A stretch of 64,000 nucleotides of DNA from Candidatus Zixiibacteriota bacterium (GCA_014730345.1 WJIJ01000019.1:10809-74808), one strand, 5' to 3'. Shown: positions 15,567-63,260, numbered from the stretch's first letter. Made by a program: numbers and translations. Notes: a model not told the origin generated them from the sequence alone.

Positions 15567-18500
15567 ATGCGTAAGAGCATTCACCGCCTTCTAAAATACA
15601 CTAATTTCCTGATTACAATTATAACAATAGTTGTTGGTGGCTTCAGCGTAGATGTTGCCTCTGGCCGGCTGGCTGAAAACTTCTATTCCGGTGTACCTCT
15701 ACCGGGTGAATGCCTCGTGCAGTTTAGCGGCGATATTAATAAAACCGAGGCTATAAGCGCGTTGAATCGAAATAGTATACGGTTTAGATCCATGATTTTT
15801 GACCGCTACGCCAACCGTGCCCTTGTCAGCTATGATCCTGAAAGCGCTTCCGTGATTGAGGGAATTACTGATGGAAAAGCGAAAATATCCGGAATAAAGT
15901 ATGTTAGTCCAGCTTATGGCGATGAGAAATGCCGTGAATTTCTTATCGATGAGATCGCGGTCGTGTTGGAATCACCCGCGGGCATCGACAGGATTGAAAG
16001 CTGGTGTTCATTGAATGGTTGTTCAGTTATAAGAATTCGCCAGTGGTACGATTACACGGGCGTTTTGATCCGGGTGGATAATTTTTCAGAGGAGCGCTTA
16101 AGCACGGCATGCTCCGAATTAGCAGGTTTTGAAGAAAGTTATCTGGTTCAGCCCAATGTTTTAAAATTCTCCGATCCTGCATCGGTGAACCCTGATGATA
16201 CTTATTTCGATGACCAATGGGCGCTGAAAAATACCGGAATGAACGGATGGCTCGAGGATGCTGATATTGACGCGCCTGAAGGGTGGGAGTTGGCCCGGGG
16301 CAGTTCGGAAATAATTATCGCGGTGCTGGATATGGGAGTTGATGTCGAACACGAGGAATTTATCGATAAGATAGTTGCTCCGTACAACGCGGTTGACGGT
16401 ACGGATGAGCAAACCCCAAATGATTGGGACGCTCACGGCACATGCTGTGCCGGTATTGCCGCGGCCCGGACCGATAACAATAAAGGGATAGCCGGCGTAA
16501 ACTGGAACGCGCAAATTATGCCGATTAAGATCGGCTATACGCCTGAACCCGGGGGGCAGAGGATGGTTACTGATTACTGGGCATCCGATGGAATCCTGAC
16601 CGCCGCACAGAGGGGAGCGGATGTATTGAGTAATAGCTGGTATACAACGCCGTCGGACCTGATCGATCTGGCGTTCTATACAGTTTACCAGACCGGCCGC
16701 GATGGCAGGGGTTGCATTTCGGTTGCCGCCGCGGGGAATTTTAATTCCGATTTAGTCTATCCGGCAAGCTTGCCTGAAACTTTCGCCGTGGGCGCTACCA
16801 GCCCCTGCGATGAACGCAAGAGCCCTACTTCCTGCGATGGTGAAACATGGTGGGGAAGCAATTATGGCCAGGGACTCGACGTTATGGCCCCGGGATGTTA
16901 TATATGGACAACTGACATAACCGGAGGCGGCGGTTCCAATCCGGGAAATCCGGCTTATGGAGATCCGCTGGGGGATTACGTATCACGCTTCAGGGGCACA
17001 TCGTCGGCCACTCCCCAGGTTGCCGGTTTGGCGGCTATTATTTTATCTATCGATCCGGAGATGACCGCTTTTGAAGTACAGCAACTAATAATCGACAATA
17101 CCGATGATCTTGGGCCGCAGGGTTGGGATGAAGAATTTGGGTATGGAAGAATCAATATTTTCAAAACCATTTCAGCAATGGACAGGGTTATACGGGTAGA
17201 TGGAAATATACGCGAGGATCAAGTTTGGAAGCATGGAAATGTATACCTTGTTGAAAATTCTGTAAATATTGAGTCGGATGTTACCATTACTATAGAGGGG
17301 GGAACAGTTGTCAAGTTCAATCCCGAAGAGAGCATGGAGGTTAATGGGATTCTCAGGCTCGAGGGCACAGCCGGATACCCGGTTGTATTTACATCCTATC
17401 GCGACGATGAATATGGGGGGGACACGAATGGCGACGGTCCATCGAACGGGCAGATGTGCGATTGGGGCAAGATAACCATTAATAATCCGGCGAGTGAATT
17501 TCATGATGTAATTATGAGATATGCTGGTCATGACTGGGTTCCACTTCCTTATGACCGTTCACTGGAAACCGTGGCGCTCTATGATGGAATCCAGGATTGT
17601 ACATTTCAATATTGCGGAGGCAACAGCAGGGGAGTAATAGATATAAATGAGAGCGAAGATTTTCAATTTATTATTTCTGATTTGACATTCGAGAATTGTG
17701 ATTATTGGGCGATAAATTATAATGCCAGCCCCACGATTCCGCCCCATTTAGTAAATGTGGATGTTTCGGGGGCGCAGGGGATTTATATGCGCTATGAACA
17801 AAACGGTTCCCCGGTTATAGCCTATTGCGTTGTTTCCGATTTTAATTCTGGCGATGGAATCTATTATTACGGCGGCTACAGCTATGTTTCCCATCCGCAG
17901 ATATTTAACAACCGCGTAGACGGCGGTTCATACTCAACAGGGATTACTGTTTGGTCCGGCGGAGATCAGTCATCCATTAGATTCAATGAGATTATCAATA
18001 ACCAGGATGGGATAAGGCTGGAGAATTATTCGGGAGAAGTATACTCCAACAACATAGAAGGAAATAGCGGTTATGGCCTGATAAATAATTCAGGGATTAT
18101 AACCATAGACGCGGACAGCAACTGGTGGGGCGCGCCCGACGGACCCTCGGGAGGAGGCAGTGGATCGGGGGATGCTATCTCTGGAAATATAGCTTATCAG
18201 CCATACCTTACTGAACCTGCTTCATTTTACGGCCCCCCGGATATTGTCGTCAACCACGACGCTTTCCATGTTGACATGCATCCGGCCGAAATTATCGCTA
18301 AACAGTTCCGGATTACAAATCGCGGGCAAAGTGAACTCGTATACGATGTATACGAAATAGACAGTATTCCTGGTATGAACATGAATGATATCGATATACA
18401 AACTTTAAACAACCCCCTTTCGGATGATTATAAGAGGATTGCCGGTTATATAGTCGACCATGATAACCGTGATGATGTAAGTTGGCTGGAGCCCGTGCCC

Positions 18501-19367
18501 GTCTCCGGAGCGTTGGATACTGGTCAAACAAAGGACATTATGGTGAATTTCTATAGCGGTGAAATGGTTCCTGACAGGTATTCATGCCTGCTTTCTGTTG
18601 TCTCCAATGATCCGGCGAGGCCGGTTTACAATCTCCCCGTATATCTCAATGTGGAACAGCCAGTGGAGTTTTCGGTTATAATGCTCCCGGACGATCCACC
18701 GGCACATGTACCCCACACAGGCGGTGAGTTCGGTTACACGGGCACCTTGAGAAATAATACCGGCCAGTATCAAACCCTTGATTTGTGGTTAACGGTGCAG
18801 ACTCCAGTGGGCGAGGTCCTGGGGCCATTTTATAAAGTTGATAACATACGGATGGCTCCTTATGAAACAATGGTTGCCGCTAATTTATCCAAATATGTGC
18901 CGGGAGATATGATGGCTGGCGACTACATCTTCAGCGCTATCGGCGGTGATTACCCTGACAAAACCGACTCTTGCAGCTTCATCGTTACCAAGGATAATTT
19001 CCGGGGCAATAAAGACGATGGCAATGAGAAAATCTCGTATAGCGGTGAAGCAGTTTTCATTGGCGAGCCGTGGTTTAGAAACAGCGGCGATGAAAACCTG
19101 CCCCTTGTTTTATCACTCGGTAATAATTATCCAAATCCTTTTAACGCGGCCACTTCGATTTCCTACGAACTGCCGTACCCGGCAGATGTCCGCCTTGAGG
19201 TCTATAACCTGATGGGGCAAAGGGTTACGAGGTTGGCTGGCGGTTACCATAAAGCCGGGCGTTATAGTGTTAACTGGGACGCGTCCGATTATTCCAGCGG
19301 GGTCTATTTCTACAGGCTGACCGCGGGCGATGCGACTATAGTTAAGCGGATGACGCTATTGAAGTAA
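15567..19367 (+). CDS. Secreted subtilisin-like serine protease (S8) with I9-like propeptide, parallel beta-helix region and T9SS type-A C-terminal sorting domain
   Basis: The ATG at 15567 gives a signal/anchor peptide MRKSIHRLLKYTNFLITIITIVVGG; the track ORF begins at an upstream TTG at 15486. S8 triad blocks are present (AVLDMGVD, HGTCCAGIAAA, GTSSATPQVAGLAAI). The central region carries repetitive beta-helix-like segments. The C-terminus NYPNPFNAATSISYELP...GVYFYRL...KRMTLLK matches the Por_Secre_tail family. Confidence 0.88.
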   Translation: MRKSIHRLLKYTNFLITIITIVVGGFSVDVASGRLAENFYSGVPLPGECLVQFSGDINKTEAISALNRNSIRFRSMIFDRYANRALVSYDPESASVIEGITDGKAKISGIKYVSPAYGDEKCREFLIDEIAVVLESPAGIDRIESWCSLNGCSVIRIRQWYDYTGVLIRVDNFSEERLSTACSELAGFEESYLVQPNVLKFSDPASVNPDDTYFDDQWALKNTGMNGWLEDADIDAPEGWELARGSSEIIIAVLDMGVDVEHEEFIDKIVAPYNAVDGTDEQTPNDWDAHGTCCAGIAAARTDNNKGIAGVNWNAQIMPIKIGYTPEPGGQRMVTDYWASDGILTAAQRGADVLSNSWYTTPSDLIDLAFYTVYQTGRDGRGCISVAAAGNFNSDLVYPASLPETFAVGATSPCDERKSPTSCDGETWWGSNYGQGLDVMAPGCYIWTTDITGGGGSNPGNPAYGDPLGDYVSRFRGTSSATPQVAGLAAIILSIDPEMTAFEVQQLIIDNTDDLGPQGWDEEFGYGRINIFKTISAMDRVIRVDGNIREDQVWKHGNVYLVENSVNIESDVTITIEGGTVVKFNPEESMEVNGILRLEGTAGYPVVFTSYRDDEYGGDTNGDGPSNGQMCDWGKITINNPASEFHDVIMRYAGHDWVPLPYDRSLETVALYDGIQDCTFQYCGGNSRGVIDINESEDFQFIISDLTFENCDYWAINYNASPTIPPHLVNVDVSGAQGIYMRYEQNGSPVIAYCVVSDFNSGDGIYYYGGYSYVSHPQIFNNRVDGGSYSTGITVWSGGDQSSIRFNEIINNQDGIRLENYSGEVYSNNIEGNSGYGLINNSGIITIDADSNWWGAPDGPSGGGSGSGDAISGNIAYQPYLTEPASFYGPPDIVVNHDAFHVDMHPAEIIAKQFRITNRGQSELVYDVYEIDSIPGMNMNDIDIQTLNNPLSDDYKRIAGYIVDHDNRDDVSWLEPVPVSGALDTGQTKDIMVNFYSGEMVPDRYSCLLSVVSNDPARPVYNLPVYLNVEQPVEFSVIMLPDDPPAHVPHTGGEFGYTGTLRNNTGQYQTLDLWLTVQTPVGEVLGPFYKVDNIRMAPYETMVAANLSKYVPGDMMAGDYIFSAIGGDYPDKTDSCSFIVTKDNFRGNKDDGNEKISYSGEAVFIGEPWFRNSGDENLPLVLSLGNNYPNPFNAATSISYELPYPADVRLEVYNLMGQRVTRLAGGYHKAGRYSVNWDASDYSSGVYFYRLTAGDATIVKRMTLLK

Positions 19368-19772
19368 TCCGAATTCAGAATCCGTTGTTCGGGGATTAAT
19401 GGGGCGAAATATAGTTTCATGTCTACTAAAATTAGGCTTGACATCGAGCATGTAATTTGTAATTTATTTAGATTGTTTTAATGCCGCTGTAGAAAAGGTT
19501 TTGCCGCGATATTCGGATTTCGCCGCAGGGCTTATGCCGTTTAACTGTATATAATATAATCCGCGTTTCGATATCGGAATTTTGATAGTAATTAACAGAT
19601 CCAAACAAAGGGAAAACGGCTGATACGGCGGTTAAGCAGGTGGTGGTTTACCCGATATTAATCTGGCCACTGTTTTCTCTGACGCTTATGGAGAAGCGCA
19701 TACTCAGGGCTGTTGGCAAGGATGAAGAATAAGTAATTGCGCCGAATTAATCTAAGCCCTGCTGATCTAACC

Positions 19773-20861
19773 ATGAAGAATTGGAAACTACTTAAAACCA
19801 TCCCGGTTTTTATACTTGCCTTCTTATCAATACTTGTTTCTATCCAATTCGGGGGTTGCGGCAATCAAAGCATCAGTACTATTAAAAAGTACATAAAACA
19901 GGATAATTTCCAGGGAGCGAAATCTGAGTTAACCGAGCTTCTAAAGCGCGACCCGGTGAATAACGAAGCGCTGTTTCTCATGGGCAAGACCTGCGCCCAA
20001 TTGAAGGAATTCCGGTGTATGAATGAAAATTTCTCGCGGTCGTTGGAAATAGGCGACAGGTTCAGCAGGAAGATAGAGTACATAAAACTGGATAATTGGG
20101 CTTATTATTTTAATATGGCGATGGCATCGTATAGAATTCATGATTATGACAAGGCAATCACATTCGGTGAGTACGCGCTGGCTATAGCCGACACGGCGTA
20201 TGCTCATTTTTATTATCCTGATTTTGAAAATGTTACGCGAATGCAACTGGTTATGGGAGAATCATTCCGGGAGCTGGGGAGAATCGAGGATGCCAACAGG
20301 TATTACCGGTTGTGCCTGGGAAATAATCCGGACCAATTGCTCTGTTTAAACAGGCTGGCGGATTATTATTATTACAAAACGGCTTATGACAGCGCGTTGA
20401 TATTTTACCAGCGCATCGGCAGGATACGTCCTTATGATGAAAACGCTGCGGTACGGGCGGTTAAGTGTGTTGAAAATATTGATGGAGTGGAGGCCGCGAT
20501 CGAGATGGCTAACAGCAAGCTTTCCTCATCATCGAGAAGCGCGATATTAACGCGTTATATAGTTAATCTATACCTCCGGGAAGGAAATTTCAACGGTGCG
20601 GAATTCTGGCTGGAGAATGGTTATGTCGGAGAAAAGGATTATGATTATTACTTCATGCTGGGTCAGTGTAAATACAACCTTATGGATTTTGATAGCGCGA
20701 AGCAGTTGTTTGAAAAAGCTGTGGGTTTATCGCCCACTGGAAAAGAGGCGTGGGAATACCTCCAGATAATCTATGGCAATATTGGAGATATCGAAAAATA
20801 TGAATATGCACGGAGCCGGGTTAATTCTCTTCCGGGAAATGAGGATCAGTTAAAGGACTAA
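19773..20861 (+). CDS. TPR-repeat lipoprotein
   Basis: Start chosen at MKNWKLLKTIPVFILAFLSILVSIQFGGCG (lipobox-like FGGC). Multiple TPR-like helical repeats. Its stop overlaps the start of the next gene (TAATG). Confidence 0.6.
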   Translation: MKNWKLLKTIPVFILAFLSILVSIQFGGCGNQSISTIKKYIKQDNFQGAKSELTELLKRDPVNNEALFLMGKTCAQLKEFRCMNENFSRSLEIGDRFSRKIEYIKLDNWAYYFNMAMASYRIHDYDKAITFGEYALAIADTAYAHFYYPDFENVTRMQLVMGESFRELGRIEDANRYYRLCLGNNPDQLLCLNRLADYYYYKTAYDSALIFYQRIGRIRPYDENAAVRAVKCVENIDGVEAAIEMANSKLSSSSRSAILTRYIVNLYLREGNFNGAEFWLENGYVGEKDYDYYFMLGQCKYNLMDFDSAKQLFEKAVGLSPTGKEAWEYLQIIYGNIGDIEKYEYARSRVNSLPGNEDQLKD

Positions 20862-23800
20862 TGGACTATAACAAACAGACATCCCTTCTATTGAGGGCTT
20901 TGCGGATCCTGGTTTTCTCTATGCTTGTTATACCGCTCTGGGTTAACAACGCCGCGGCGTTGGATATTATCTCGTTTTACCCCGCTAATTTCTCGCTTGG
21001 TTTCGAGGCTACTGATTCCATAAGAGTGGTTTTCGATGCTATTATCGATGACGGGTCAGTTGATAGTACATCATTTTTGGTAAGGGGCAAAACGAGCGGA
21101 GTCTATCGGGGGACATACCGGGTATCGGCGGATACCGCGTGGTTTATTCCCCGCTGGCCATCGACTTTTATCTGGGGCGACATGATAACGGTTACAGTTA
21201 CCGAGGATGTCAGGACACCGATCAATGATTTCCTGGACCGGTCGGTGACATGGCAATTCTGGGTACGTCCTTCCGGCGGCGCAAGGGGCGCTACGGAGAG
21301 GTGGTTTGACCTTAATTCTTTCGACCCGGGCAAACTTATCGAGGTCGTCGATTTAGGTCCGGATGCCGACAGCATTCTTCATCAGCCGGACCTTGTCTCT
21401 ATCGGTCCCAAGCTTGGCGGCGACAGGGTTTCGTACTGGTTGAATGAATTTTCGAGCGACCCTGATATACCTTACCGTAATCCCCGGGCTGGTTTTTTTG
21501 ACCTCGATAACCAGCACAGCACGGATATAGAACCCGGCGATTTCAATAATGACGGCAGGATGGATCTTATTGTGGCCAATGAAGAAAGCGACTATTTCTA
21601 TTTTATTAAAAACACCGGCGGTTCTATCCCTCAGTTCGATTCTGTTTATTATGATATAGGAGGTATCCATTTCAACAGGTTTACCACTCTCGATTATGAC
21701 GGTGACGGATACCTTGATCTCGCGGGGATCAGCCCCGGGCAGAATATACTCGCGGTATTTCACAACGTCCCTTCAGGAAGCGAACGCGATTTCATAGTCG
21801 ACTGGGCTGACTCAACATCTGAATTCTGGCCCAGCGACTTGATCAGCGCTGATTTTAATAATGACCGGTTGATGGATATCGCGGTTTGCGCGAGAAATGA
21901 CGATGGGGAAAGCATTTATATTTACATTAACACCGGAGGTTTGCCGGGGAACCCATTCATTAGCGCCGTAATCCAGACCGGTCCCAATTCCATAACCGGG
22001 GTGGAAGCGGTAAACGCCGATGGCAATCAATCGCCTGACCTGCTTTTGTATTCCAGCCTTACCACTAACTGGCGGGCGGCTGTTATCAATAATCCCATGG
22101 GTCCTTCGACAAGCATAGATACCCTGCAGGGAATAGAACCGGGTATTCATGGTTACCCGGTAGATGCCAAAGCCGCGGATATTGAATTTAGCGGAGGCAT
22201 TAATCTCGAATACGCGGTGATTACCGAACAGAACTATCTTTTTCAGTATATCAGCGGATACGATAATCCCATCATAATAGGACCCGTCGTTGGGATGACC
22301 CTCGAAGAATCACCGCCCAAATTATCCCTCGCCGACCTCGACTACGACGGTGATATAGATATCCTCGTATCCTACGAAAGCGGCAATACAATTGTTGGCT
22401 GGCGCAATCCGGACACCCTCGAGAACCTGGTTGTGGTTCCCGATACAGTGAATTTCGGTATCGTGGAAATAAATACTGTTGATACATTGACCTATTCCAT
22501 AATAAACGCCGGCAATGAGATCGCCACCCTCGATGATATATACGGTGATGATCTTCCATTTAACGTGATTGATTTCCAGGCTGGAGATACGCTGGCACCC
22601 GGCGAGAGCAGTGATATAACGGCGGTATTCCAACCGCCAGCCTACGCTATATTCGAGGATACGGTTGTTCATGTTATAGGTTTAAGGTCTTTATACAGGT
22701 TCGAGGAAAATGTTATTTACTATGGAATTGGCGGCAAAAGGAGTTTTGGCCTTGATTCTGACACCATTGATTTCGGAGTTCAGTGCCGGGATACAGTCTT
22801 CCAGCAATTGCGGATAGAAAACTCATCTCCCGAAAACAATATGGAATTGGTTATCGATTCCTACCGGTGGAACCCGGCCGGTCAAGACCGTTTCCGGGTC
22901 AGGGGCGTGAGCTTGCCGGACACCATCCAGGCCGGGGAAGCTATAACATATTTTGTCGATTTCTTCGCCGACTCGATTTTTGCATCCTATTCGGCGTGGC
23001 TTGTTTTCGAACATAATGCCACCGGGACCGCGGGCATTGATTCGGTGTATATGACCGGCACCGTATTCTGCAATATTCCTCCCGAGGCCGACACGGTGCT
23101 TTTCACGATAAGCGAATGTTCCGATACCGCCTTGTACATTTCTTCTGAAAACTACCGCGATCCGGATAATCTCCCGCAGAACCTGAGTATTATTTCCGTG
23201 GTGGGATATCCATCCTGGGTAAGTTGGGACGGAGACACTACTTTGATTGCCAACCCCGGTCCCGAGGTGCAGGTTGATGAGGATACCGAATACTGGTTTC
23301 CGTACGTTATTACCGATGGGGCGGATACCGCTTCGTCCTGGATTGGTTTAACGCTTCTTGATGTTGAGAACGAACCTCCCGAAGTTGGTCCCCAGCTTTT
23401 CTCGATATTAGGGGATAGTACCCAGAATTTATCGCTGGAGATAAGCGACAACGATGGGGGCTGTTTAGGCTTTCCGGATATTGCTACAACATATACCAAC
23501 AGGTCGCTTCAACTACTTGGTGTGCTCCAAAATTATGATACATTGATTATTGTTCATCCTGATCAGGTACCGGAAGGCGATGTGCTGGTTTGCTCGCTTA
23601 TGGTTTCCGCTTTTGACGGTTTCGATTCATCCTATACAGTAATACCGGTTAATATTCTCCATAATCCTAATATCAAACCCGACCTGCGATTAATTGGACT
23701 GTCAGCGGCATCACAGCGCGTACCGGTGCGGGACTCGGTGGCGCTTACAGTTATTACCGATGTTATCCAAAACAGCTTCCCTGAAGAATATGTGATAGAA

Positions 23801-24283
23801 CTCCGCGACAATGACACCCTGTTCGCAGAGATAAGCATGCCTCCGCTGGGAAAGGACGAAGCTGACACTGTAACGGTTAGGCGATTGATTAGTTCGCTTG
23901 GCAACCATACTATAAACGCGCGGGCGGTTATTCCCCAGGGAGCGGCAGACAGGGATACCACTAACAATGAAAGGTCAATTATCGTGGTGGGAACCGAAGG
24001 GGACGTTATCGTCAAACCAAAGCCGTTTACTCCCAACGGCGATGGTTTTAATGACCGTTTGATTTTTGATTTAACCGCGTTGTACATAGATGAACCGCAG
24101 GTATTGATTTACTCGCTCGCGGGCGTAAAATTGAAGAAACTGGATGATGTATCCGCTGATAAGTTAATCTACTGGGATGGGAAGGATGATTCGGGACTGG
24201 ATCTCCCGCCCGGCGCGTATATGTTTATAGTAACGGACGGTTCTCGCAAACTGCATTCAGGTGTGATTTCCCTTGCAAGATAG
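20861..24283 (+). CDS. Large FG-GAP/VCBS-repeat adhesin-like protein with T9SS type-B (CHU_C, gliding-motility-associated) C-terminal domain
   Basis: 1140 aa. Signal peptide. Repeated FG-GAP-like Ca-binding loops (FNNDGRMDLIVAN, DYDGDGYLDLAG, DLDYDGDIDILVS, DFNNDRLMDIAV). The last about 90 aa contain PKPFTPNGDGFNDRLIF ... GAYMFIV, the hallmark of the type-B T9SS CTD. Confidence 0.72.
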   Translation: MDYNKQTSLLLRALRILVFSMLVIPLWVNNAAALDIISFYPANFSLGFEATDSIRVVFDAIIDDGSVDSTSFLVRGKTSGVYRGTYRVSADTAWFIPRWPSTFIWGDMITVTVTEDVRTPINDFLDRSVTWQFWVRPSGGARGATERWFDLNSFDPGKLIEVVDLGPDADSILHQPDLVSIGPKLGGDRVSYWLNEFSSDPDIPYRNPRAGFFDLDNQHSTDIEPGDFNNDGRMDLIVANEESDYFYFIKNTGGSIPQFDSVYYDIGGIHFNRFTTLDYDGDGYLDLAGISPGQNILAVFHNVPSGSERDFIVDWADSTSEFWPSDLISADFNNDRLMDIAVCARNDDGESIYIYINTGGLPGNPFISAVIQTGPNSITGVEAVNADGNQSPDLLLYSSLTTNWRAAVINNPMGPSTSIDTLQGIEPGIHGYPVDAKAADIEFSGGINLEYAVITEQNYLFQYISGYDNPIIIGPVVGMTLEESPPKLSLADLDYDGDIDILVSYESGNTIVGWRNPDTLENLVVVPDTVNFGIVEINTVDTLTYSIINAGNEIATLDDIYGDDLPFNVIDFQAGDTLAPGESSDITAVFQPPAYAIFEDTVVHVIGLRSLYRFEENVIYYGIGGKRSFGLDSDTIDFGVQCRDTVFQQLRIENSSPENNMELVIDSYRWNPAGQDRFRVRGVSLPDTIQAGEAITYFVDFFADSIFASYSAWLVFEHNATGTAGIDSVYMTGTVFCNIPPEADTVLFTISECSDTALYISSENYRDPDNLPQNLSIISVVGYPSWVSWDGDTTLIANPGPEVQVDEDTEYWFPYVITDGADTASSWIGLTLLDVENEPPEVGPQLFSILGDSTQNLSLEISDNDGGCLGFPDIATTYTNRSLQLLGVLQNYDTLIIVHPDQVPEGDVLVCSLMVSAFDGFDSSYTVIPVNILHNPNIKPDLRLIGLSAASQRVPVRDSVALTVITDVIQNSFPEEYVIELRDNDTLFAEISMPPLGKDEADTVTVRRLISSLGNHTINARAVIPQGAADRDTTNNERSIIVVGTEGDVIVKPKPFTPNGDGFNDRLIFDLTALYIDEPQVLIYSLAGVKLKKLDDVSADKLIYWDGKDDSGLDLPPGAYMFIVTDGSRKLHSGVISLAR

Positions 24284-24291
24284 ACAGGTAA

Positions 24292-26106: not shown

Positions 26107-26163
26107 CATCGATCCGATAAATAAAATAAGGGAAATACCGGATTACGGATAAGGAGCAGGTGA

Positions 26164-26940: not shown

Positions 26941-26958
26941 AATGGAGATTAAAGCAAA

Positions 26959-27339
26959 ATGTTGCTGAGATTGGTAGACATAACCCTTATCCTGCTTTTC
27001 GGATTTATATCCATTAGTTCTATAGAACCACGCACCAATATACGCCTGCCCGAAGCGGAATATGCCGAATTCGACTCCCAAAAACGGAGAGCGGTTGAAA
27101 TTATCGGGATAGATAACCAGGGACGTATCCTTATCAGCGAAGAGAGATACCGGGTGGATAGAGAACTCCTGCTCCCCTACCTTATTCAAAAACGAGAACA
27201 ATTCGATTCGCTGAGAGTAAAAATCAGGGCAGAACGCGACGCGGAGATCATAGATGTCAAAAAGGTCGCATTGCTCTGTGATTCCCTGAGAATACCCAAG
27301 AGCATCGAGGTGCGTATGCCGGAGGGAAGCAGGCGATGA
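26959..27339 (+). CDS. exbD: ExbD/TolR-family protein
   Basis: 126 aa. N-terminal RLVDITLILLFGFI TM typical of ExbD. ATGA overlap with the next gene. Confidence 0.6.
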   Translation: MLLRLVDITLILLFGFISISSIEPRTNIRLPEAEYAEFDSQKRRAVEIIGIDNQGRILISEERYRVDRELLLPYLIQKREQFDSLRVKIRAERDAEIIDVKKVALLCDSLRIPKSIEVRMPEGSRR

Positions 27340-30256: not shown

Positions 30257-30268
30257 AGAGAAGCGCTT

Positions 30269-32033: not shown

Positions 32034-32052
32034 AAAGGGAGTTGAGTGCAGC

Positions 32053-32901: not shown

Positions 32902-32909
32902 TCCTGCTT

Positions 32910-45785: not shown

Positions 45786-45935
45786 TTCAGTTCACCTCCG
45801 CTTCAGCTATAAATCGCGCCATTAAAAACTACTTGATTATTCGGGGGAATTTTGTATATTGAAAAGGCGTAGTAGCGTAGATATTTAGGACATAATGTAT
45901 TGGTAGATATAAAATTAGAAAATTCGGAGGTTGTC

Positions 45936-54409: not shown

Positions 54410-54410
54410 T

Positions 54411-54478: not shown

Positions 54479-55087
54479 ATGTCACCTCGCATAGTTAACA
54501 AGCAGGCTAAAAAGGAAGCGATTATACAGAAAGCAACGGAAGTTATCTCCGCAAAGGGGATTTACAGTTTTAAAATGAGCGATGTCGCCGATGCCGCTGA
54601 TGTGGGCAAGGGAACCCTTTATGAATATTTCAAAGACAAGGAGGAGTTGGTTACGGCTTGCTATGTCTACTTTTTGGATTCCTTTATTGATATTGCTGAT
54701 AGCGTTGATTTGAAAAATTCGGCGAGAGCCAATTTGAGGTCTTACATTTCAGTTCTATTCAAACATTTCTCGAAAAATATCGATAGCGTGCACATAGCGT
54801 TTGATTTCTGGTCGCAAGCGCTTCAATCAAGTGATAACAGGCAGTATGTTAAATTAATGACCAAGGCATACAACGATTTCGTAGCAGTGCTTATCCGAAT
54901 TATAAAAGACGGAATCAAGAAGGGTGAATTCCGCGCGATAGATGTGGAAAAATACGCCGCCGCGATAGTAGGCATGCTTGATGGAATTCTATTCCAGGGC
55001 GTTATGGGGATTAATGATATAACTGATGCAAAATGGCCGAGAGTAATTAGCAACATGATTTTGAATGGTCTCAGCAAAACCGGGTGA
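54479..55087 (+). CDS. TetR/AcrR-family transcriptional regulator
   Basis: 202 aa. N-terminal HTH with KGTLYEYFKDKEEL, then an all-helical ligand-binding domain. Confidence 0.8.
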   Translation: MSPRIVNKQAKKEAIIQKATEVISAKGIYSFKMSDVADAADVGKGTLYEYFKDKEELVTACYVYFLDSFIDIADSVDLKNSARANLRSYISVLFKHFSKNIDSVHIAFDFWSQALQSSDNRQYVKLMTKAYNDFVAVLIRIIKDGIKKGEFRAIDVEKYAAAIVGMLDGILFQGVMGINDITDAKWPRVISNMILNGLSKTG

Positions 55088-55094
55088 TAGATAA

Positions 55095-55877
55095 GTGAAC
55101 AGGAGGAGCAGATTGAAGAAGAATATTGTCATAGCTGTAATATTTATATCTCTAATCATAGGGAAAGGCTATAGTTACGCCGAGGACGCGAAAGAGATAG
55201 TGGACAAAGCCGACAAGCATTTTCGGGGTAATACAAGTTATAGCGAGATGAGTATGAAGATAGCGCGTCCAGACTGGAGCCGTGAACTCGGAATGAAAAG
55301 TTGGTCTAAGGGACGAGAGCTGTCATTGATTATTATAACCGAACCAGCCAGAGATAAAGGAACCGCTTTTTTGAAAAGGGGAAATGAAGTATGGAACTGG
55401 GTGCCGCGGGTTGAGAAAGTTATTAAGATTCCTCCTTCGATGATGCAACAGTCATGGATGGGCAGTGATTTCACTAATGACGACCTTGTGAAGGAATCAT
55501 CGATTGTTGAAGATTATTCCCATGAAATAGTCGGCGATTCGGTTATACAGGGGCGGGAATGTTATAAAATTAAAATGACTCCTAAGCCGGAAGCGCCCGT
55601 AGTTTGGGATAAGGTTTTGTTGTGGGTAAGTAAAAAGCACTACCTGCAAATGCGTGGTGAGTACTACAATGAGGATGGTGAACTTGAAAATACCATGATA
55701 ATGACCGATGTAAAAACCCTCGGAGGAAGGCTCATTCCGGCGATCATGACCATGATCCCCGCCGATGAACCGGGGAATAAAACGGTTATAACTATCCATG
55801 AAATGCAGTTCAATCAACCGATCAATGATTCCTTTTTCTCCGAGCGTAATATGAAAAAGATGAGTAGCAGGATTTAG
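55095..55877 (+). CDS. LolA-like outer-membrane lipoprotein-sorting family protein (periplasmic; alternative TTG start at 55113 preceded by AGGAGG)
   Basis: About 255 aa. Signal peptide. Blocks MSMKIARPDWSRELGMKSW, GTAFLKRGNEVWNWVP, KIPPSMMQQSWMGSDFTNDDL are as I recall for the LolA-like family that travels with FtsX/MacB-type ABC exporters. Confidence 0.5.
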   Translation: MNRRSRLKKNIVIAVIFISLIIGKGYSYAEDAKEIVDKADKHFRGNTSYSEMSMKIARPDWSRELGMKSWSKGRELSLIIITEPARDKGTAFLKRGNEVWNWVPRVEKVIKIPPSMMQQSWMGSDFTNDDLVKESSIVEDYSHEIVGDSVIQGRECYKIKMTPKPEAPVVWDKVLLWVSKKHYLQMRGEYYNEDGELENTMIMTDVKTLGGRLIPAIMTMIPADEPGNKTVITIHEMQFNQPINDSFFSERNMKKMSSRI

Positions 55878-55888
55878 CGGTCAGTATT

Positions 55889-57112
55889 ATGAATATGTAC
55901 TTAAGATTAGCATGGCGGAACATCTGGCGAAATAAAAGGCGGAGCATAATATCGATCGCGTCGGTGTTGCTGGCGGTATTAATTGCGCTTTTTATGCGTT
56001 CTATGCAGAAGGGAACCTACGCCCGGGCTATTGATAACGTTGTGTCATTTTATACCGGATATATCCAGATTCATAATCCGGGTTACTGGGATAAAAAATC
56101 ACTTAATAAAACATTCGCGGTTCAGGAATCGTTAATAGAAAACGTTTCCTCGACAGAGTATGTAACCCATGTAACTCCCCGCCTTGAAGGTTATGGATTA
56201 ATATCGGGCGGCGAACGTACTGACGTCGGATTGGTGATAGGCATTAATCCCGAAGTTGAAAACGATATGACCGGTTTAGAAGGCAAACTTATAGAAGGCG
56301 AATATCTTCAACAGGGAGATATGGGAATTATGCTCGCCAAGGGATTAAGCGACCATCTCGACCTCGGGATTGGCGACACGGTGGTGATACTCGGGCAGGG
56401 TTACCATGATATTATGGCCGCCGGTAAGTATGAGATTCAAGGTTTGATTGAATTTCCTATAAAGCAATTAAACAATACTATGTCATACCTTACGCTTGAA
56501 GAAGCCCAGTATCTATTTGGAGCGTACAACAGATTAACATCGCTCTCAATAATGATCGAAGGGGAGGATAAACTCGATGAAGTGATGAATAATCTCGGTA
56601 AAAAATACAGCGAAGACTACGAGATTATGAGCTGGAAGGAAATGAGTCCGGAACTGGAGCAGGGGATAGAAGCAGATAACGCTTCCGGCTTGATTATGTT
56701 GTTTATACTTTACATGGTGGTAGGTTTCGGGATATTAGGAACAATATTGATGATGACCATGGAGCGCACCAGGGAATTCGGGGTTTTGATCGCGGTAGGA
56801 ATGAAGCGCGGTTACCTGAGGCTGATAACATTAATAGAGAGCATCTTCCTGTCTTTTGTGGGAGTAGTGCTGGGAACTATTCTCTCGGTGCCGATTCTCG
56901 CATATTTCCGAAGCAATCCCATTTATTTCACCGGGGAGCTTGCCAAATCGATGACCGAGTTCGGTTACGAACCGATACTGGCGTTTACCCTCGCGCCAGG
57001 TATATTTCTATGGCAGGCGGTCGTTGTTTTTATAATAGCTTTCATAGCGGCATTATATCCATTATGGAAAATTACCCGGTTGGATGCTGTCGACGCGATG
57101 AGGTCGGTATGA
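55889..57112 (+). CDS. ABC transporter permease, FtsX/MacB/LolCE family
   Basis: 407 aa. N-terminal LAWRNIWRNKRRS and TM1, a large periplasmic domain, and three C-terminal TMs. This is the MacB/LolC topology. Confidence 0.75.
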   Translation: MNMYLRLAWRNIWRNKRRSIISIASVLLAVLIALFMRSMQKGTYARAIDNVVSFYTGYIQIHNPGYWDKKSLNKTFAVQESLIENVSSTEYVTHVTPRLEGYGLISGGERTDVGLVIGINPEVENDMTGLEGKLIEGEYLQQGDMGIMLAKGLSDHLDLGIGDTVVILGQGYHDIMAAGKYEIQGLIEFPIKQLNNTMSYLTLEEAQYLFGAYNRLTSLSIMIEGEDKLDEVMNNLGKKYSEDYEIMSWKEMSPELEQGIEADNASGLIMLFILYMVVGFGILGTILMMTMERTREFGVLIAVGMKRGYLRLITLIESIFLSFVGVVLGTILSVPILAYFRSNPIYFTGELAKSMTEFGYEPILAFTLAPGIFLWQAVVVFIIAFIAALYPLWKITRLDAVDAMRSV

Positions 57113-57140
57113 TTATGAATTATAACAGGGGAATGATAAT

Positions 57141-58355
57141 ATGATTTGGTCGATTGCCTGGCGTAATGTCTGGAGGAATAAAAAGCGGTCAGCGATTATA
57201 CTAACCGCAGTTGCTTTTGGTATTTGGGCTGGATTGATGAGCAACGCTATTATGCTGGGAGCGTCAAGGCAGATGGTTAAATCAGCGATAGAAACCAGGA
57301 CCTCGCATATACAGGTCCACCGTGAAGGATTCCGTGACCACCACGAAATTGATTTGATGATTCAGGAACCGGATAGCGTGACAAGTGTAATTAAATCCAT
57401 TGAAGGCGTTAAGGCGATTTCGGTCAGGTCAGTTTTAACCGGGATGTGCCGTTCGCCGGAGTCCGGTACCGGGGTTACTTTATTCGGAATCAAGCCCGAG
57501 GATGAAGCGCGGGTTTCGGCAATAGAAGATAAACTTGTTGACGGTTCATTCTTCAAGGATGAATATCGCAACCCGATTATTGTTGGCGATGACCTTGCTA
57601 AAAAACTCGATGTCGGCGTAGGAAATAAAATAGTAGTTAACGCGCAGGACCTCGAAGGTTCGATCGCGGGGGGCGCTTTTCGTGTGGTTGGCATCTTTAA
57701 TACAGTCTCTTCTGAATTCGACAAATCGAATGTGTTCGCTCTCAGGAATGATATTGACGAGATTTATGAACTTGGCGGTGGAGTCCATGAGATAGCTGTT
57801 ATCCTGAATAGCAACGACATGTTGAAGACGGTTGATGAAAAACTGAAAAATAGTTTATCAAATCTCGATGTGGCGACGTGGGAAGAGATTGAACCGCAGA
57901 TGTCGATCTTAACCGGCACCCAAAAGCAGATGTCATACATTTTCATAGGGATAATTCTACTTGCTCTTGTCTTCGGTATCACTAATACGATGTTGATGGG
58001 CGTGCTGGAACGAATAAGAGAGCTTGGCGTCGTACTTTCGCTGGGCATGAACCATTTCCGGATATTCTACATGATTCTCCTCGAAACGATATTCCTGTCG
58101 ATTATAGGCGCGGGAGGAGGGATGCTGGCGACCGTAGGTACCATCGCTGTCGCGGGGAAAACCGGTATCGATCTATCTATAGTCTCAGCCGGCCTTGAGG
58201 CTTTCGGGATGAGTACCATGCTTTATCCCTATCTGCCCGCGGGGGAATATCCTGTAGTCGCTCTGATGGTCGTAGTTACCGCGGTTGTAGCGTCAATATA
58301 TCCGGGCATAAAAGCAATCAGACTCAACCCGGTGGAAGCGATTAGAACTTATTAA
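57141..58355 (+). CDS. ABC transporter permease, FtsX/MacB/LolCE family (second copy)
   Basis: 404 aa. IAWRNVWRNKKRS N-terminus and the same topology as the preceding gene. Confidence 0.75.
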   Translation: MIWSIAWRNVWRNKKRSAIILTAVAFGIWAGLMSNAIMLGASRQMVKSAIETRTSHIQVHREGFRDHHEIDLMIQEPDSVTSVIKSIEGVKAISVRSVLTGMCRSPESGTGVTLFGIKPEDEARVSAIEDKLVDGSFFKDEYRNPIIVGDDLAKKLDVGVGNKIVVNAQDLEGSIAGGAFRVVGIFNTVSSEFDKSNVFALRNDIDEIYELGGGVHEIAVILNSNDMLKTVDEKLKNSLSNLDVATWEEIEPQMSILTGTQKQMSYIFIGIILLALVFGITNTMLMGVLERIRELGVVLSLGMNHFRIFYMILLETIFLSIIGAGGGMLATVGTIAVAGKTGIDLSIVSAGLEAFGMSTMLYPYLPAGEYPVVALMVVVTAVVASIYPGIKAIRLNPVEAIRTY

Positions 58356-58372
58356 TTATAAAGGAGCTTGTC

Positions 58373-59068
58373 GTGGCGGTAATAATGAGTGAAAAGATAT
58401 GTAAAACGTACAACGACGGCGGCGTGCCGGTGAAAGCGTTGAAGGATGTCGATATGGAAATAGAGGATGGTGAATTTACCGCTATCGTTGGTCCATCAGG
58501 TTCAGGTAAAACTACATTGCTGAATGTGATTGGAGGTTTAGATACTCTGACCTCAGGGAAACTACGGGTAGGGGATAAGGAAATCTCGGAGATGACCCCT
58601 AACGACCTTATTGAATTCAGGTTGAACAATATCGGATTCGTTTTCCAGGCCTATAATCTTATCCCGGTGCTGACCGCTATAGAAAACGTTGAGTTCATAA
58701 TGTTACTTCAAAAAGTATCAAAAGAGGAAAGGCGCGGGAGGGCGCGGGAATTGCTTAAATCGGTTGGATTGGAAGATATGATTAACAGAAAACCGATAGA
58801 GCTTTCCGGGGGACAGCAACAGAGGGTAGCCGTCGCCCGCGCGCTGGCATCCCGCCCCCGTTTCGTGCTAGCTGATGAACCGACCGCCAACCTCGATACC
58901 GCGTCCGCCGAAAACCTGCTCGATATCATGGAGCGCATGAACGATGAACACAAGATGACCTTCATTTTTTCCACCCATGACCAGCGGGTGGTCAGGCGCG
59001 CCCGCCGGGTTATCACTTTAAAAGACGGGCAGGTCGATACCGATGAACGCAAGGGGGAAAATGGGTGA
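58373..59068 (+). CDS. ABC transporter ATP-binding protein (LolD/MacB-ATPase-like)
   Basis: 231 aa. Walker A GPSGSGKTT, signature LSGGQQQRVAVARAL, Walker B FVLADEPT, H-loop. GTG start with AAGGAG RBS. Confidence 0.9.
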   Translation: MAVIMSEKICKTYNDGGVPVKALKDVDMEIEDGEFTAIVGPSGSGKTTLLNVIGGLDTLTSGKLRVGDKEISEMTPNDLIEFRLNNIGFVFQAYNLIPVLTAIENVEFIMLLQKVSKEERRGRARELLKSVGLEDMINRKPIELSGGQQQRVAVARALASRPRFVLADEPTANLDTASAENLLDIMERMNDEHKMTFIFSTHDQRVVRRARRVITLKDGQVDTDERKGENG

Positions 59069-60228
59069 TACGTTTACTCCTCTCCATTTTAATATCAGTA
59101 TTCGCCGCCTTACCTGTCTATGCTCAATGGGGAGACCCCTACAGCTTCGGCGGGTATCTAAGGATTACGCCCATGGTCTGGAAACCGGCTTCCTATTTCA
59201 CCAGCGATGAGAATTACGAGGTAATGAATATCATTCTCACCCGGCAGAATTTCAGATGGTACCCTACAACTAACTTCACATTCGGTTTAGAGCTTAAAAG
59301 CAGGATTTACCAGGGCGGTTCAATTTACCTGCTAAAACAAACCGCCAATGTTTCATCGTTGGGCGCGTCATATTTCGATTGGGATAAAAACTGGCTCGAA
59401 GAAGATGAAGTATTAATCAACAGTACCATCGACAGGGCATGGCTGAAAGTATATTTCGGTGATTTACAGATAGACCTCGGACGGCAGAGGATTGCCTGGG
59501 GAACGAATCTCGTATGGAACCCTGTTGACCTTTTCAATCCCTCCAACCCGATGGATTTTACCAATGACGAGATGCCTGGTACCGATGCCGTTCGCGCGCA
59601 ATACTACCTCGGTCCCAACTCTAAGATTGAAACCGCTGTTGCTCCTCAAAAAGAAGAGGATGAAACGATCGCCGCCGGTTTACTCCAGATTAATTTGTGG
59701 GATTATGATTGGATATTTCTTGGAGGAAGGCGTTATCAGGAAACCGTATTCGGATTCGCCTGGGCCGGCAGTATTCTTGACGGCGGTTTCCGCGGGGAGT
59801 TTTTGTATTCCAAACCGCGGAGATACCTGAATGATTCCGGTGGTTATCTCGTCGCCAGTGTCTCCGGCGACTACACAATGAAAAACTCCCAGTATTTTCA
59901 CGGGGCTTTGCTCTACAACGAGAGGGGTACAACCGATGATGCCGGCGGATTCCGTCAACTGCTGGCATATATGCGTGGCGAATTGACTCCTGCGCGCATT
60001 TCATTATGGGGAGAGATAGCACGTGATTTGACACCGCTGTTACGGGGAGATATCGCTATGATATTCAACCCCTATGATAACTCGTGGTACCTGAGCCCCA
60101 ATTTTACCTACTCTTTGATTACCGATCTGGATGTTACCGCGATGGCTTTGATTTTCGGCGGTGATGATGGCACCGAGTTCGGCGACACCGGCAATATCTA
60201 CATGATGCGCTTCAAGTACTCATTTTAA
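59065..60228 (+). CDS. Putative outer-membrane beta-barrel protein, last gene of the TetR/ABC operon
   Basis: 387 aa. GTG start overlapping the upstream stop (GTGA). Signal peptide ...ALPVYAQ. Alternating amphipathic beta-strand pattern and a C-terminal ...RFKYSF ending in Phe. Confidence 0.35.
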   Translation: MIRLLLSILISVFAALPVYAQWGDPYSFGGYLRITPMVWKPASYFTSDENYEVMNIILTRQNFRWYPTTNFTFGLELKSRIYQGGSIYLLKQTANVSSLGASYFDWDKNWLEEDEVLINSTIDRAWLKVYFGDLQIDLGRQRIAWGTNLVWNPVDLFNPSNPMDFTNDEMPGTDAVRAQYYLGPNSKIETAVAPQKEEDETIAAGLLQINLWDYDWIFLGGRRYQETVFGFAWAGSILDGGFRGEFLYSKPRRYLNDSGGYLVASVSGDYTMKNSQYFHGALLYNERGTTDDAGGFRQLLAYMRGELTPARISLWGEIARDLTPLLRGDIAMIFNPYDNSWYLSPNFTYSLITDLDVTAMALIFGGDDGTEFGDTGNIYMMRFKYSF

Positions 60229-60482: not shown

Positions 60483-60935
60483 ATGCGCTGTAAGACTATA
60501 TTAATAGTAATCTTTGGTTTAATGATATTTAATTTAATATCATTTGGATCTGCCTTGGCGCAACCCCAATCTCAGATGGAGGTTTTTGCATCAACCGATT
60601 ATTCATTGCCTGTAGAAAGCGAAGAGTTTACTTCCGCCGCACGATATGCCACTATAACTCTTGATTTTGATCGTACCGATAAAATCGCTATCCCTGGAAC
60701 ATATGACACTGAAATAAAGCCATACAATTACGACTGTAATTCATGGAGCGAAATGGTTTTTGCTTCGAACTGGGCTACAAACGGCGAATACCACATAGCC
60801 TATCCTACGGAAGATTGTGGGAGTGCCGGTGATCAAACCATGGGAATTGATATTACTATTAGTAGTGAAAAAGGGCATTTTGTTAATATGGAGCCTGGAT
60901 TCACTTATTCAAGTTCAATGCCGGAAAAAGAGTAA
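60483..60935 (+). CDS. Hypothetical small secreted protein
   Basis: 150 aa. Signal peptide MRCKTILIVIFGLMIFNLISFGSALAQ. RBS GGAGG. No recognisable domain. Confidence 0.35.
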   Translation: MRCKTILIVIFGLMIFNLISFGSALAQPQSQMEVFASTDYSLPVESEEFTSAARYATITLDFDRTDKIAIPGTYDTEIKPYNYDCNSWSEMVFASNWATNGEYHIAYPTEDCGSAGDQTMGIDITISSEKGHFVNMEPGFTYSSSMPEKE

Positions 60936-60946
60936 CCTATATCCAA

Positions 60947-60973: not shown

Positions 60974-60992
60974 ACTTTAGAAGGTAAGAATA

Positions 60993-63260
60993 ATGTTATT
61001 AATACGAACAATTACATTTTCCTTTATAATTCTTTTATCGGGAATTGCGTCGGCCGGTGAAAATGTTTGGACATCCAATGGTCCCTATGGGGCATCATCG
61101 AAAGCGATCGCCTTTCATCCTGAATATCCACAGGTAGTATTCACCGGGACGATATCTATGTCCGTTTTTAAAACGATAAATGGCGGTAGAGATTGGGAGA
61201 GAATTAGCGATGATTCTTTAAATAGTTCAGTTTGGGATTTAGAAATCCATCCCGTTGCTCCCGATACAATGTATCTTTGCGGGACAAGGGGTATCTATAA
61301 AAGTGTTAACGGGGGATATGATTGGTTTGGAATTAGAACTGATAATGTGTACAATACTATAGCGCTCCACCCGATTCAACCAAGCATACTTTTCGCAGGA
61401 GGCCCCTATTCATATATTTCAAAAGACGGAGGAAATACATGGAACAGGTTGATGGAGGAGAACGTTTTAATTAAAGATATCGAAGTGAGCCCCCATAGTT
61501 CAAATACAATTTTCGCGGTAACCAGTAAATTTTATTTGGGTAAAGGAGTTTTTAGAAGCGATGACAGCGGGGACACGTGGCGTAATATCCACAACAACTT
61601 AGACTACAGCCACTCGCCAGGTTACTCAATCGATTTCGATCCGCATGATTCGCTTACTATCTATATTTCCCGTTTATCCCTCCCCTATGAGGGTGAGTGG
61701 ATTGGTCTGAATAAAACTACTGACGGAGGGGAAACCTGGATGGATATAACTCCTTCTGGTCTCACCGAACCATGGATTCGCGATGTGGAGGTCCACCCCC
61801 TTATTGAAAACATGGTTTTTGCCGCGACAAGCCATGACGGTGTATGGATGAGTTCTAACGGCGGAAGCAATTGGGAAATCAGAAATGAACCATCTGCAGG
61901 GTCGCCAAGCACACTTGAGTTTAGTGGTAGCGGCTTGGATTTGTTGCTGGGAAAATATCATTCCGGGATTTTTAAGACTACCGATAACGGAAGAACTTGG
62001 GTTTCCTCAAGTAATGGTTTGAGCGAAGGCCCGATAAGTAGTATGATATTTCATCCCCATGAAGATGATAAGCTTTATGCCTTAGGTGGGGCCGGATTGT
62101 TTTCCAGTAATAATGGTGGCTCGAATTGGAGTCGAGTTGAAATAGGAATTGAGGTGAGTCATCTTTTTAAGCCAGGTGTTATCCTGTCGGATACTATCGG
62201 TAGCGGTAGAATCTTTTTGTGTCTTAACGCCTGTGGTTTGAATGGATGGTATAAAGATGGTTTGTTTCTTTACAGCGAGAACTGGGGAGAGAGTTGGACG
62301 GAGTATAACCTTGGTTTGCCGGATTCGATATTCTACACCTGTATGGATATAGCCTACTGCCCGGGCAATCAATACAAAATCTACCTCACAGCAGCCGACT
62401 CCGGAGTATATTATTGCGATGATTTGGTCAGCGGTTGGCATAAATGCGACGATGGCCTTCCGCAAGCGCCTAATTTCGGATGGTACAAGATAAGGGTTAA
62501 TCCGGGAAATCCGGATGATATATATGTTAGTTCCGGATTCGGCGATGTATTCCGTTCGATAGATGGAGCGCAGAGCTGGCAATTTGTTACGGAGATGCCG
62601 GATATGGTTACCGAGATCGCTTTTAACCCTATCAATCCATTGACTCAGTATATATCTTCCTGCGCCGGTTTATATAAGACTACCGATAATGGCGAAACCT
62701 GGGTAAACCTCTCCGAGGATTGGATCGAAAAAGAAGTTTACGGAATTGTTTTCAACCCCCGAAATCCCTCCGAATTGATCATCTCCTCATTTGCGCATCG
62801 CGTCGCCAAAAGTACGGATGGCGGCGATACGTGGCATACGATGAATGATGGTTTATTATATAGAAGTTATTTCGTTCCGAGAAATATATTCGTGTCACCC
62901 CACGAAGATGAAAAGTATTACCTGACTTCTGACATGGGAATCTGGGAATATAATAGAGTGCAAACCCCTGTTGACGATAGTTATATTGATTCAATTCAAG
63001 ATCCACTAATACTGACCAGCTTCCCCAATCCATCTAACAACCAAATATTAATAGAGTACCGAATAGAAACGGGCGGTGATGTGAAACTTGAGGTATTCAA
63101 TGTAAAAGGGCAACTTATTACTAAATTAGTCGAGGAGAAACAAACGCCGGGTACGTATACAGTGAGTTGGGACGGCATTGGTTTTTCATCCGGAGTTTAT
63201 TTCGCTAAACTGAAAACAGGGGAGAGGACTTATACGCGTAAAATGGTGATGACTAAATAA
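60993..63260 (+). CDS. BNR/Asp-box repeat (beta-propeller) protein with T9SS type-A C-terminal sorting domain
   Basis: 755 aa. Signal peptide. At least 10 S-x-D-x-G-x-T-W type repeats (SKDGGNTW, SDDSGDTW, TTDGGETW, SSNGGSNW, TTDNGRTW, STDGGDTW ...). C-terminus FPNPSNNQILIEYRIETGGDVKLEVFNVKGQLI...GVYFAKL...RKMVMTK. Confidence 0.75.
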   Translation: MLLIRTITFSFIILLSGIASAGENVWTSNGPYGASSKAIAFHPEYPQVVFTGTISMSVFKTINGGRDWERISDDSLNSSVWDLEIHPVAPDTMYLCGTRGIYKSVNGGYDWFGIRTDNVYNTIALHPIQPSILFAGGPYSYISKDGGNTWNRLMEENVLIKDIEVSPHSSNTIFAVTSKFYLGKGVFRSDDSGDTWRNIHNNLDYSHSPGYSIDFDPHDSLTIYISRLSLPYEGEWIGLNKTTDGGETWMDITPSGLTEPWIRDVEVHPLIENMVFAATSHDGVWMSSNGGSNWEIRNEPSAGSPSTLEFSGSGLDLLLGKYHSGIFKTTDNGRTWVSSSNGLSEGPISSMIFHPHEDDKLYALGGAGLFSSNNGGSNWSRVEIGIEVSHLFKPGVILSDTIGSGRIFLCLNACGLNGWYKDGLFLYSENWGESWTEYNLGLPDSIFYTCMDIAYCPGNQYKIYLTAADSGVYYCDDLVSGWHKCDDGLPQAPNFGWYKIRVNPGNPDDIYVSSGFGDVFRSIDGAQSWQFVTEMPDMVTEIAFNPINPLTQYISSCAGLYKTTDNGETWVNLSEDWIEKEVYGIVFNPRNPSELIISSFAHRVAKSTDGGDTWHTMNDGLLYRSYFVPRNIFVSPHEDEKYYLTSDMGIWEYNRVQTPVDDSYIDSIQDPLILTSFPNPSNNQILIEYRIETGGDVKLEVFNVKGQLITKLVEEKQTPGTYTVSWDGIGFSSGVYFAKLKTGERTYTRKMVMTK

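Follow-up and report, generated by a model that had tools for sequence, protein, structure and literature searches.

We estimate, with a probability of about 80%, that five proteins predicted as substrates of type IX-like secretion are encoded in a 64,000-nucleotide (nt) stretch of DNA from a Candidatus Zixiibacteriota bacterium (GCA_014730345.1, WJIJ01000019.1:10809-74808; the whole stretch is called the window below). Four of the five end in a type-A sorting domain of T9SS, the type IX secretion system. The fifth is a candidate type-B substrate, which lies beside a gene for a PorP/SprF-family carrier within a conserved gene module. The window holds about 50 genes, predominantly on the + strand.

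Type-A sorting tails on four predicted secreted proteins

In scans with the NCBIfam and Pfam models, four open reading frames (ORFs) proved to carry the type-A T9SS sorting domain at their very C-terminal end:

15567-19367, + strand: S8 subtilase of 1266 amino acids; ATG at 15567 is the likely start, the ORF opening at a TTG at 15486; tail at about 19128-19364
43403-45727, + strand: InhA-like protein with MAM and NIDO domains; tail at about 45488-45724
45900-48884, + strand: S8 subtilase, start codon uncertain; tail at about 48645-48881
60993-63260, + strand: BNR/Sortilin-Vps10 propeller; tail at about 63021-63257

The first subtilase matched PF00082 with 160 bits, TIGR04183 with 43.8 bits and PF18962 with 34.3 bits; for the second, the corresponding scores were 168, 42.9 and 39.7 bits. 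The InhA-like protein scored 49.4 bits with TIGR04183, 46.4 with PF18962, 40.5 with PF20773 and 28.5 with PF06119. The propeller protein matched PF15902 (138.8 bits), TIGR04183 (48.3 bits) and PF18962 (41.6 bits), carries seven Asp-box-like motifs and reached 174 bits with the glycosylhydrolase family NF045728, against a cut-off of 175. All four tails thus exceed both curated cut-offs, which are 23 bits for TIGR04183 (observed, 42.9-49.4) and 27 bits for PF18962 (observed, 34.3-46.4). Chance matches are excluded, since the E-values of the type-A hidden Markov model (HMM) range from 1e-11 to 1e-13. The model alignments stop 3-4 residues short of the stop codon.

We also aligned the four tails into an HMM of their own, which we ran on every stop-to-stop segment in the six frames of the whole window. 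It recovered exactly these four tails, with 140-146 bits, and the runner-up reached 4.7 bits. Neither this search nor a motif regular expression detected a fifth type-A tail in the window. An earlier note on this DNA had counted five type-A proteins and six cargos in all. We find four type-A proteins and one type-B candidate, that is, five among the approximately 50 genes; the figure of five type-A proteins counts the giant protease at 15567 twice, once by itself and once among the two S8 enzymes. The same note took the cargo set to point to extracellular polymer degradation. A degradative or adhesive set is plausible. The Asp-His-Ser motifs are intact in both S8 enzymes: VLDMG, HGT and GTSSATP in the first, and the canonical DTG, HGT and GTSMACP in the second.

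By inspection and hydropathy, the N-termini of all five candidate cargos are hydrophobic and signal-peptide-like. The type-A proteins resemble Bacteroidota type-A cargo, such as the Porphyromonas gingivalis gingipains and the Flavobacterium johnsoniae hydrolases, in combining a signal peptide, a catalytic or binding region and a C-terminal tail of about 75-80 residues. They also share the above-cut-off HMM scores and the cargo types, proteases and a BNR propeller. They differ in that their host is a Zixibacteria member, that the cognate PorV and PorU are not seen in the window and that they are known here from their sequence. By analogy with the Bacteroidota, the four type-A cargos, in each of which a functional region stands between a predicted Sec signal peptide and the sorting domain, would cross the inner membrane through Sec. 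Passage of the outer membrane would follow through the SprA/Sov translocon, with PorV as general carrier, and PorU would remove the tail, leaving the cargos released or lipid-anchored. As a finding, the T9SS cargo is real but largely ordinary, and its naming was partly known already: 43403-45727 (MBD3168296.1) and 60993-63260 (MBD3168308.1) both carry the GenBank name "T9SS type A sorting domain-containing protein".

The origin of the DNA fits a T9SS host. Proteins of the window exactly match MBD3168269.1 (RpoA), MBD3168280.1, MBD3168296.1 and MBD3168308.1 of a metagenome-assembled genome (MAG) of 'candidate division Zixibacteria bacterium' (matching NCBI protein range MBD3168269-MBD3168308; locus tags GF307_*); the contig in question measures 91,133 bp. 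The next-best RpoA relatives with a named source (63-77% identity) are all from Zixibacteria, save one WOR-1 entry at 65%. Zixibacteria are placed by the NCBI taxonomy within the Fibrobacterota-Chlorobiota-Bacteroidota (FCB) group, and the FCB anchor drawn in the earlier note from the tails is thereby confirmed. Reviews place T9SS in the FCB superphylum generally (PMC11205867).

The tails might instead be generic Ig-like or FlgD-like beta-sandwiches, used for cell-surface or substrate binding in an organism without a working T9SS. The tails do give weak FlgD_ig matches, the available sequence shows no gene for a T9SS translocon or sortase, and the literature searched has nothing on T9SS in Zixibacteria. 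We nevertheless consider this reading very improbable. The T9SS-specific model gives 43-49 bits, well over its cut-off and over the FlgD_ig scores, and the NYPNPFN...GVYFY...KM.LLK motifs are kept. The tails are always at the extreme C-terminus, on signal-peptide proteins with unrelated functional domains; moreover, a PorP/SprF-family gene is present and the taxon belongs to a superphylum in which T9SS occurs (PMC11205867).

The tail-coding stretches had also been described as dispersed protein-level repeats that could seed recombination. They are indeed repeats at the protein level, but only there. Pairwise DNA identity among the four tail-coding segments is 48-58%, and their longest shared exact run is 8-11 nt; random segments of the window share runs that average 8 nt and reach 13 nt at most. 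A repeat finder run on the window detected no DNA repeat family linking the tails. With this level of identity, exact runs not above chance and no linking repeat, the proposed role in recombination does not hold.

A candidate type-B adhesin and the adjoining PorP/SprF-family barrel

The fifth candidate cargo is followed directly by the putative carrier gene:

20861-24283, + strand: adhesin-like protein of 1140 amino acids with Big_5, FG-GAP and HYDIN/VesB Ig-like domains; divergent type-B (CHU_C) tail at 24017-24280
24292-26106, + strand: PorP/SprF-family outer-membrane barrel of 604 amino acids with a C-terminal extension of about 300 amino acids

The tail of the 1140-residue protein (PFTPNGDGFND...SGVISLAR), labelled hypothetical protein GF307_02275 at NCBI, narrowly misses both type-B models. 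TIGR04131 gave 27.4 bits for the whole protein and 31.1 bits for the isolated tail, with a cut-off of 35, and PF13585 gave 26.5 bits, with a cut-off of 27 (E about 1e-6 to 1e-7). Of the C-termini for which the earlier note had named the two NCBIfam models, the four type-A tails pass TIGR04183 while the type-B tail falls just under the TIGR04131 threshold. The alignments are nearly complete: positions 4-85 of the 85 in TIGR04131 cover residues 1053-1140 of 1140, i.e. the extreme C-terminus, and positions 5-84 of the 86 in PF13585 are aligned on the tail. TIGR04131 is the best family for all seven orthologous tails (7/7, the window's own included; best E 7.9e-9), among which F-T-P-N-x-D-x-x-N-D is invariant. 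The type-B call is supported by this preference of the orthologous tails for TIGR04131 and by the PorP/SprF-family gene that adjoins downstream.

The PorP-like gene starts 8 nt past the stop codon of the candidate cargo, and the pairing of cargo and PorP/SprF-like gene is found in 6/7 related loci. The encoded protein passes PF11751 (61.6 bits; cut-off 22.3) and falls short of TIGR03519 (65.7 bits; cut-off 90.55). Its closest named homologue is a 'T9SS membrane protein PorP/SprF [Zixibacteria]'. An AlphaFold2 (AF2) model, made from a 36-sequence alignment, has a mean predicted local distance difference test (pLDDT) score of 81.9. In it the barrel occupies residues 55-299, an alpha/beta domain follows at about 332-462, and residues 480-601 form an Ig-like sandwich. 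The top Foldseek matches of the barrel are FadL/TodX and the PorV chains in the SprA translocon (8gl6_F, 6h3i_F). The Ig-like part matches a repeat of another protein, which Pfam classes there as FlgD_ig/CHU_C-like. With these additions the protein is about twice the usual PorP/SprF size. The 600-residue architecture has 554 representatives at E <=1e-3 and 35 at <=1e-30 among 1.84 billion cluster representatives, and a profile search for further named homologues returned three proteins only.

In the Bacteroidota, each type-B substrate stays bound to its own PorP-like carrier, as for SprB-SprF and PG1035-PorP (PMC9143113, PMC12635249). The pair described here shares with the F. johnsoniae and P. 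gingivalis pairs (SprB-SprF and PG1035-PorP, respectively) the succession of a large, repeat-rich, adhesin-like protein with a CHU_C tail and a PorP/SprF-family barrel gene (PMC9143113, PMC12635249). It departs from them in its sub-cut-off tail and in a carrier of about 600 amino acids with alpha/beta and Ig-like domains. In close SprF homologues a Cys-X-Cys of the C-tail links SprF to GldK (PMC12635249), whereas the protein of the window has no Cys-X-Cys in its C-tail, where the folded extension of about 300 residues stands instead; its single cysteine is Cys172. In addition, no sprC- or sprD-like genes are present here, and the pair is embedded in a module with ExbB/ExbD and FGE-fold genes. 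On the analogy with SprB-SprF and PG1035-PorP, we regard the barrel as the probable dedicated carrier of the type-B cargo; it would also serve as the surface anchor of the adhesin, against which it is translationally packed.

The ExbB/ExbD and FGE-fold module

The cargo-carrier pair is part of a tightly packed, operon-like run of 12 genes (19737-34841), in which the gaps range from -8 to +57 nt. The genes encode, in this order, a TPR lipoprotein, the type-B cargo, the PorP-like protein, ExbB, two ExbD, a protein that we call X, a second TPR lipoprotein, a protein that we call Y and three FGE-fold proteins. Besides the pair, the members are:

19737-20861, + strand: TPR lipoprotein, first gene of the module; TPR Pfam matches, likely start ATG at 19773, FGGC lipobox-like site
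26164-26940, + strand: ExbB/MotA-family channel (PF01618, 49.8 bits)
26959-27339 and 27336-27731, + strand: two ExbD/TolR-like proteins (the first with TolR at 27.1 bits)
27732-28673, + strand: protein X, with a membrane helix, a proline-rich stretch and, at the C-terminus, a conserved domain
28631-30256, + strand: TPR lipoprotein; TPR matches, likely start ATG at 28670 overlapping the previous stop, MVAC lipobox
30269-30994, + strand: protein Y, secreted, 241 amino acids, strongly conserved within the module
30987-32033, 32053-32901 and 32880/32910-34841, + strand: three FGE-sulfatase-fold proteins (PF03781 with 105, 165 and 89 bits)

Several of these ORFs, as listed, open at an upstream TTG or GTG (28631/28670, 32880/32910 and 19737/19773). 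The internal ATG starts fit better, because of the spacing of the signal peptide or lipobox and because of 4-nt ATGA overlaps with the preceding stop. In the first TPR lipoprotein, Cys41 follows a hydrophobic stretch; the second gives only a faint PorW/SprE match (20.4 bits; cut-off 250). The L001 orthologues of the ExbD-like proteins carry PF02472. Neither X nor Y has a Pfam, NCBIfam or PDB sequence match, although both keep their position and sequence in every copy of the module; Y, compared across 8 loci, shows 24-56% identity with 20 invariant columns. A single-sequence AF2 model of Y was unusable (pLDDT 34). Scans for promoters and terminators returned about as many matches as chance would give, and no Rfam or tRNA features were found.

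The third FGE-fold protein (32880/32910-34841) is a lipoprotein with an fn3 domain. FGE has its two catalytic cysteines located after the GGS motif. None of the three FGE-fold proteins has a cysteine in the stretch after this motif, and we therefore regard them as probably structural rather than enzymatic. An alignment search of genome contigs with the FGE-fold proteins retrieved only distant FGE-domain proteins (<=41% identity), from Chloroflexota, Nitrospinota, Leptospira and others; hence the domain is not specific to T9SS. The like search of genome contigs with the PorP-like alignment retrieved nothing, and neither did a metagenome scan.

The order of the module is kept in seven other loci (L001, L083, L084, L085/L086, L087, L088 and L089), with protein identities of 25-64%. 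L001, from a Zixibacteria MAG, shows gene-by-gene identities of 39-64%, and L087 is a second Zixibacteria contig with the module. In L084, from a KSB1 MAG, the cargo gene is missing and ExbB is joined to Ig domains in one fusion protein. The other contigs with the module are L083, L085/L086, L088 and L089, and two of the variants, L085/L086 and L089, are devoid of ExbB and ExbD. The first TPR gene is in the same position in L083, L084, L085, L087, L088 and L089. Over all the loci the module comprises 10-12 genes, of which 2-3 encode FGE-fold proteins. The literature searched yielded no description of it, and we report it as a conserved, previously undescribed envelope unit.

In L087 and L088, further Por_Secre_tail genes stand beside the module. 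Directly upstream of it, both in the window (15567-19367) and in the distant relative L089 (2-4402), is a gene for a very large S8 protease, which hints at a recurrent association of such proteases with the module. In L085 (18392-21860) and L086 (17021-20489), the FGE-fold genes are followed by a gene for a 1676-residue Peptidase_C25 protein with a FlgD_ig-like domain. We rejected this peptidase as a PorU, as the first 1156 residues, which are all that L085 holds, do not match NF033707; for lack of this match it looks gingipain-like instead. A FadL-like protein of L084 was likewise rejected as a PorV (PorV_fam weak, 37 bits; cut-off 90).

The composition of the module recalls the porPKLMN/gldKLMN operons, with which it shares a PorP-family barrel, FGE-fold proteins without the Cys pair after GGS, a proton-driven motor, small periplasmic proteins and an operon-like layout. 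It differs from them in having a motor of the ExbB/ExbD type, not PorL/PorM, in its additional TPR lipoproteins, in FGE-fold proteins that fail the GldK equivalog and lack RGCF, and in the absence of a detectable PorM or PorN homologue. With ExbB-ExbD-TonB and TolQRA it shares one ExbB-like and two ExbD-like genes followed by a membrane-anchored, proline-rich protein and a TPR protein. In contrast to those systems, no TonB_C or TolA domain is detectable in protein X and the module comes without a TonB-dependent receptor, TolB or Pal; moreover, they are not known to be linked to a T9SS-type cargo-carrier pair or to FGE-fold proteins. A looser likeness is to the AglRQS-Glt gliding machinery of Myxococcus, which has one TolQ-like and two TolR-like subunits together with TPR and TonB-like proteins.

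These likenesses raise the question of whether the module is the lineage's own T9SS energy chain and hub, the counterpart of porP-porK-porL-porM-porN. An ExbB/ExbD motor of the 5:2 type would then stand in for PorL/PorM, the FGE-fold proteins for PorK, and X and Y for the PorM arm and PorN, and part of the T9SS 'core' would fall inside the window. The composition runs parallel: the module has a PorP barrel, FGE-fold (lipo)proteins and a proton-channel motor, as well as one periplasmic protein that is membrane-anchored and a small one that is secreted, in operon-like packing and with an order kept across Zixibacteria, KSB1 and other lineages. GldK is the top NCBIfam match of all three FGE-fold proteins, and no canonical GldKLMN was seen near the module. 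Furthermore, SprF is physically coupled to GldK, an FGE-fold track protein, through a disulfide link (PMC12635249).

The FGE-fold proteins nevertheless fail every GldK/PorK-specific test. They score 86.2, 101.2 and 51.5 bits with the GldK equivalog TIGR03525, whose cut-off is 350. In GldK and PorK a reactive cysteine, which lies within an Arg-Gly-Cys-Phe motif, is invariant (PorK Cys356, GldK Cys343; PMC12635249). By RGC/GCF motif search, this motif occurs in 0/17 of the module's FGE-fold proteins (3 in the window and 14 orthologues). Of the three, 32053-32901 alone was compared with PDB sequences, and it is nearer to genuine FGE/SUMF2 than to PorK. By score, motif and PDB ranking, we thus rejected these proteins as GldK, PorK or GldJ. 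Profiles of X and Y did not match any PDB sequence, PorM and PorN included, the L085/L086 and L089 variants have no ExbB or ExbD at all, and the PorP-like protein has one cysteine and no Cys-X-Cys in its C-tail. ExbB-ExbD-ExbD clusters are, besides, common in FCB genomes, where they have TonB-type functions. We consider it unlikely that the module substitutes for the T9SS energy chain, and we keep this as a minority hypothesis.

We favour the reading in which the module accompanies a type IX-like pathway by serving its type-B pair: the ExbB/ExbD-type, proton-driven energiser would supply energy to the carrier-adhesin complex or hold it in place, so that the module probably energises or organises this pair. 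On a bolder proposal, which we regard as rather doubtful, it would be a new energised surface-adhesin (gliding-like) or secretion apparatus of Zixibacteria, KSB1 and related FCB bacteria, a cousin or replacement of the PorPKLMN/GldJK track with a different 5:2 motor.

Core machinery, neighbouring genes and meaning for Zixibacteria

Several results weigh against the assignment of the five proteins to a type IX-like pathway. Scans of the non-housekeeping proteins of the window did not detect SprA/Sov, PorV, PorU, PorZ/Q, PorT or GldL/M/N, nor did we find SprA/Sov, PorV, PorU, PorZ/Q or GldL/M/N within 10 kb on either side of the module in the seven related loci. The PorP-like protein scores 65.7 bits with TIGR03519, below the cut-off of 90.55, and the type-B tail stays under its curated NCBIfam cut-off (27.4-31.1 against 35). 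The failure of the FGE-fold proteins in the GldK/PorK tests counts here as well, and the literature searched contains no paper on both Zixibacteria and T9SS, nor any on gliding in Zixibacteria.

The earlier note had placed the core secretion machinery elsewhere. This agrees with the window in that none of SprA, PorV, PorU and GldLMN was found there, and these components would then be encoded in another part of the genome. The statement overlooked the PorP/SprF-family gene (PF11751, 61.6 bits) and the conserved energiser and FGE-fold module behind it.

Other neighbours of the cargo genes were also recorded. Just upstream of the giant S8 gene, 10491-15113 encodes a PAS histidine kinase and two response regulators, one of them single-domain and the other with GGDEF and EAL domains; this signalling cluster could provide cyclic di-GMP (c-di-GMP) control of surface proteins. 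Just before the BNR cargo, 54479-60228 encodes a TetR regulator, a LolA-like protein, two FtsX/MacB permeases, an ABC ATPase and a 387-residue protein. The latter has no family match and ends in Phe, and it is probably an outer-membrane barrel. A 150-residue ORF at 60483-60935 has no family match.

In an FCB bacterium, proteins with such C-terminal domains are the mark of a T9SS-type lifestyle, and those found here lend modest support to a proteolytic, polymer-degrading surface biology in Zixibacteria. In 2025, work in the Bacteroidota described a PorP-like carrier (SprF) coupled to an FGE-fold track protein (GldK) that is driven by a proton motor (PMC12635249). The module brings the same three kinds of parts together in one operon, with a different motor and outside the Bacteroidota. 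If these parts work together, the module bears on the evolution of the energy chain of T9SS and gliding.

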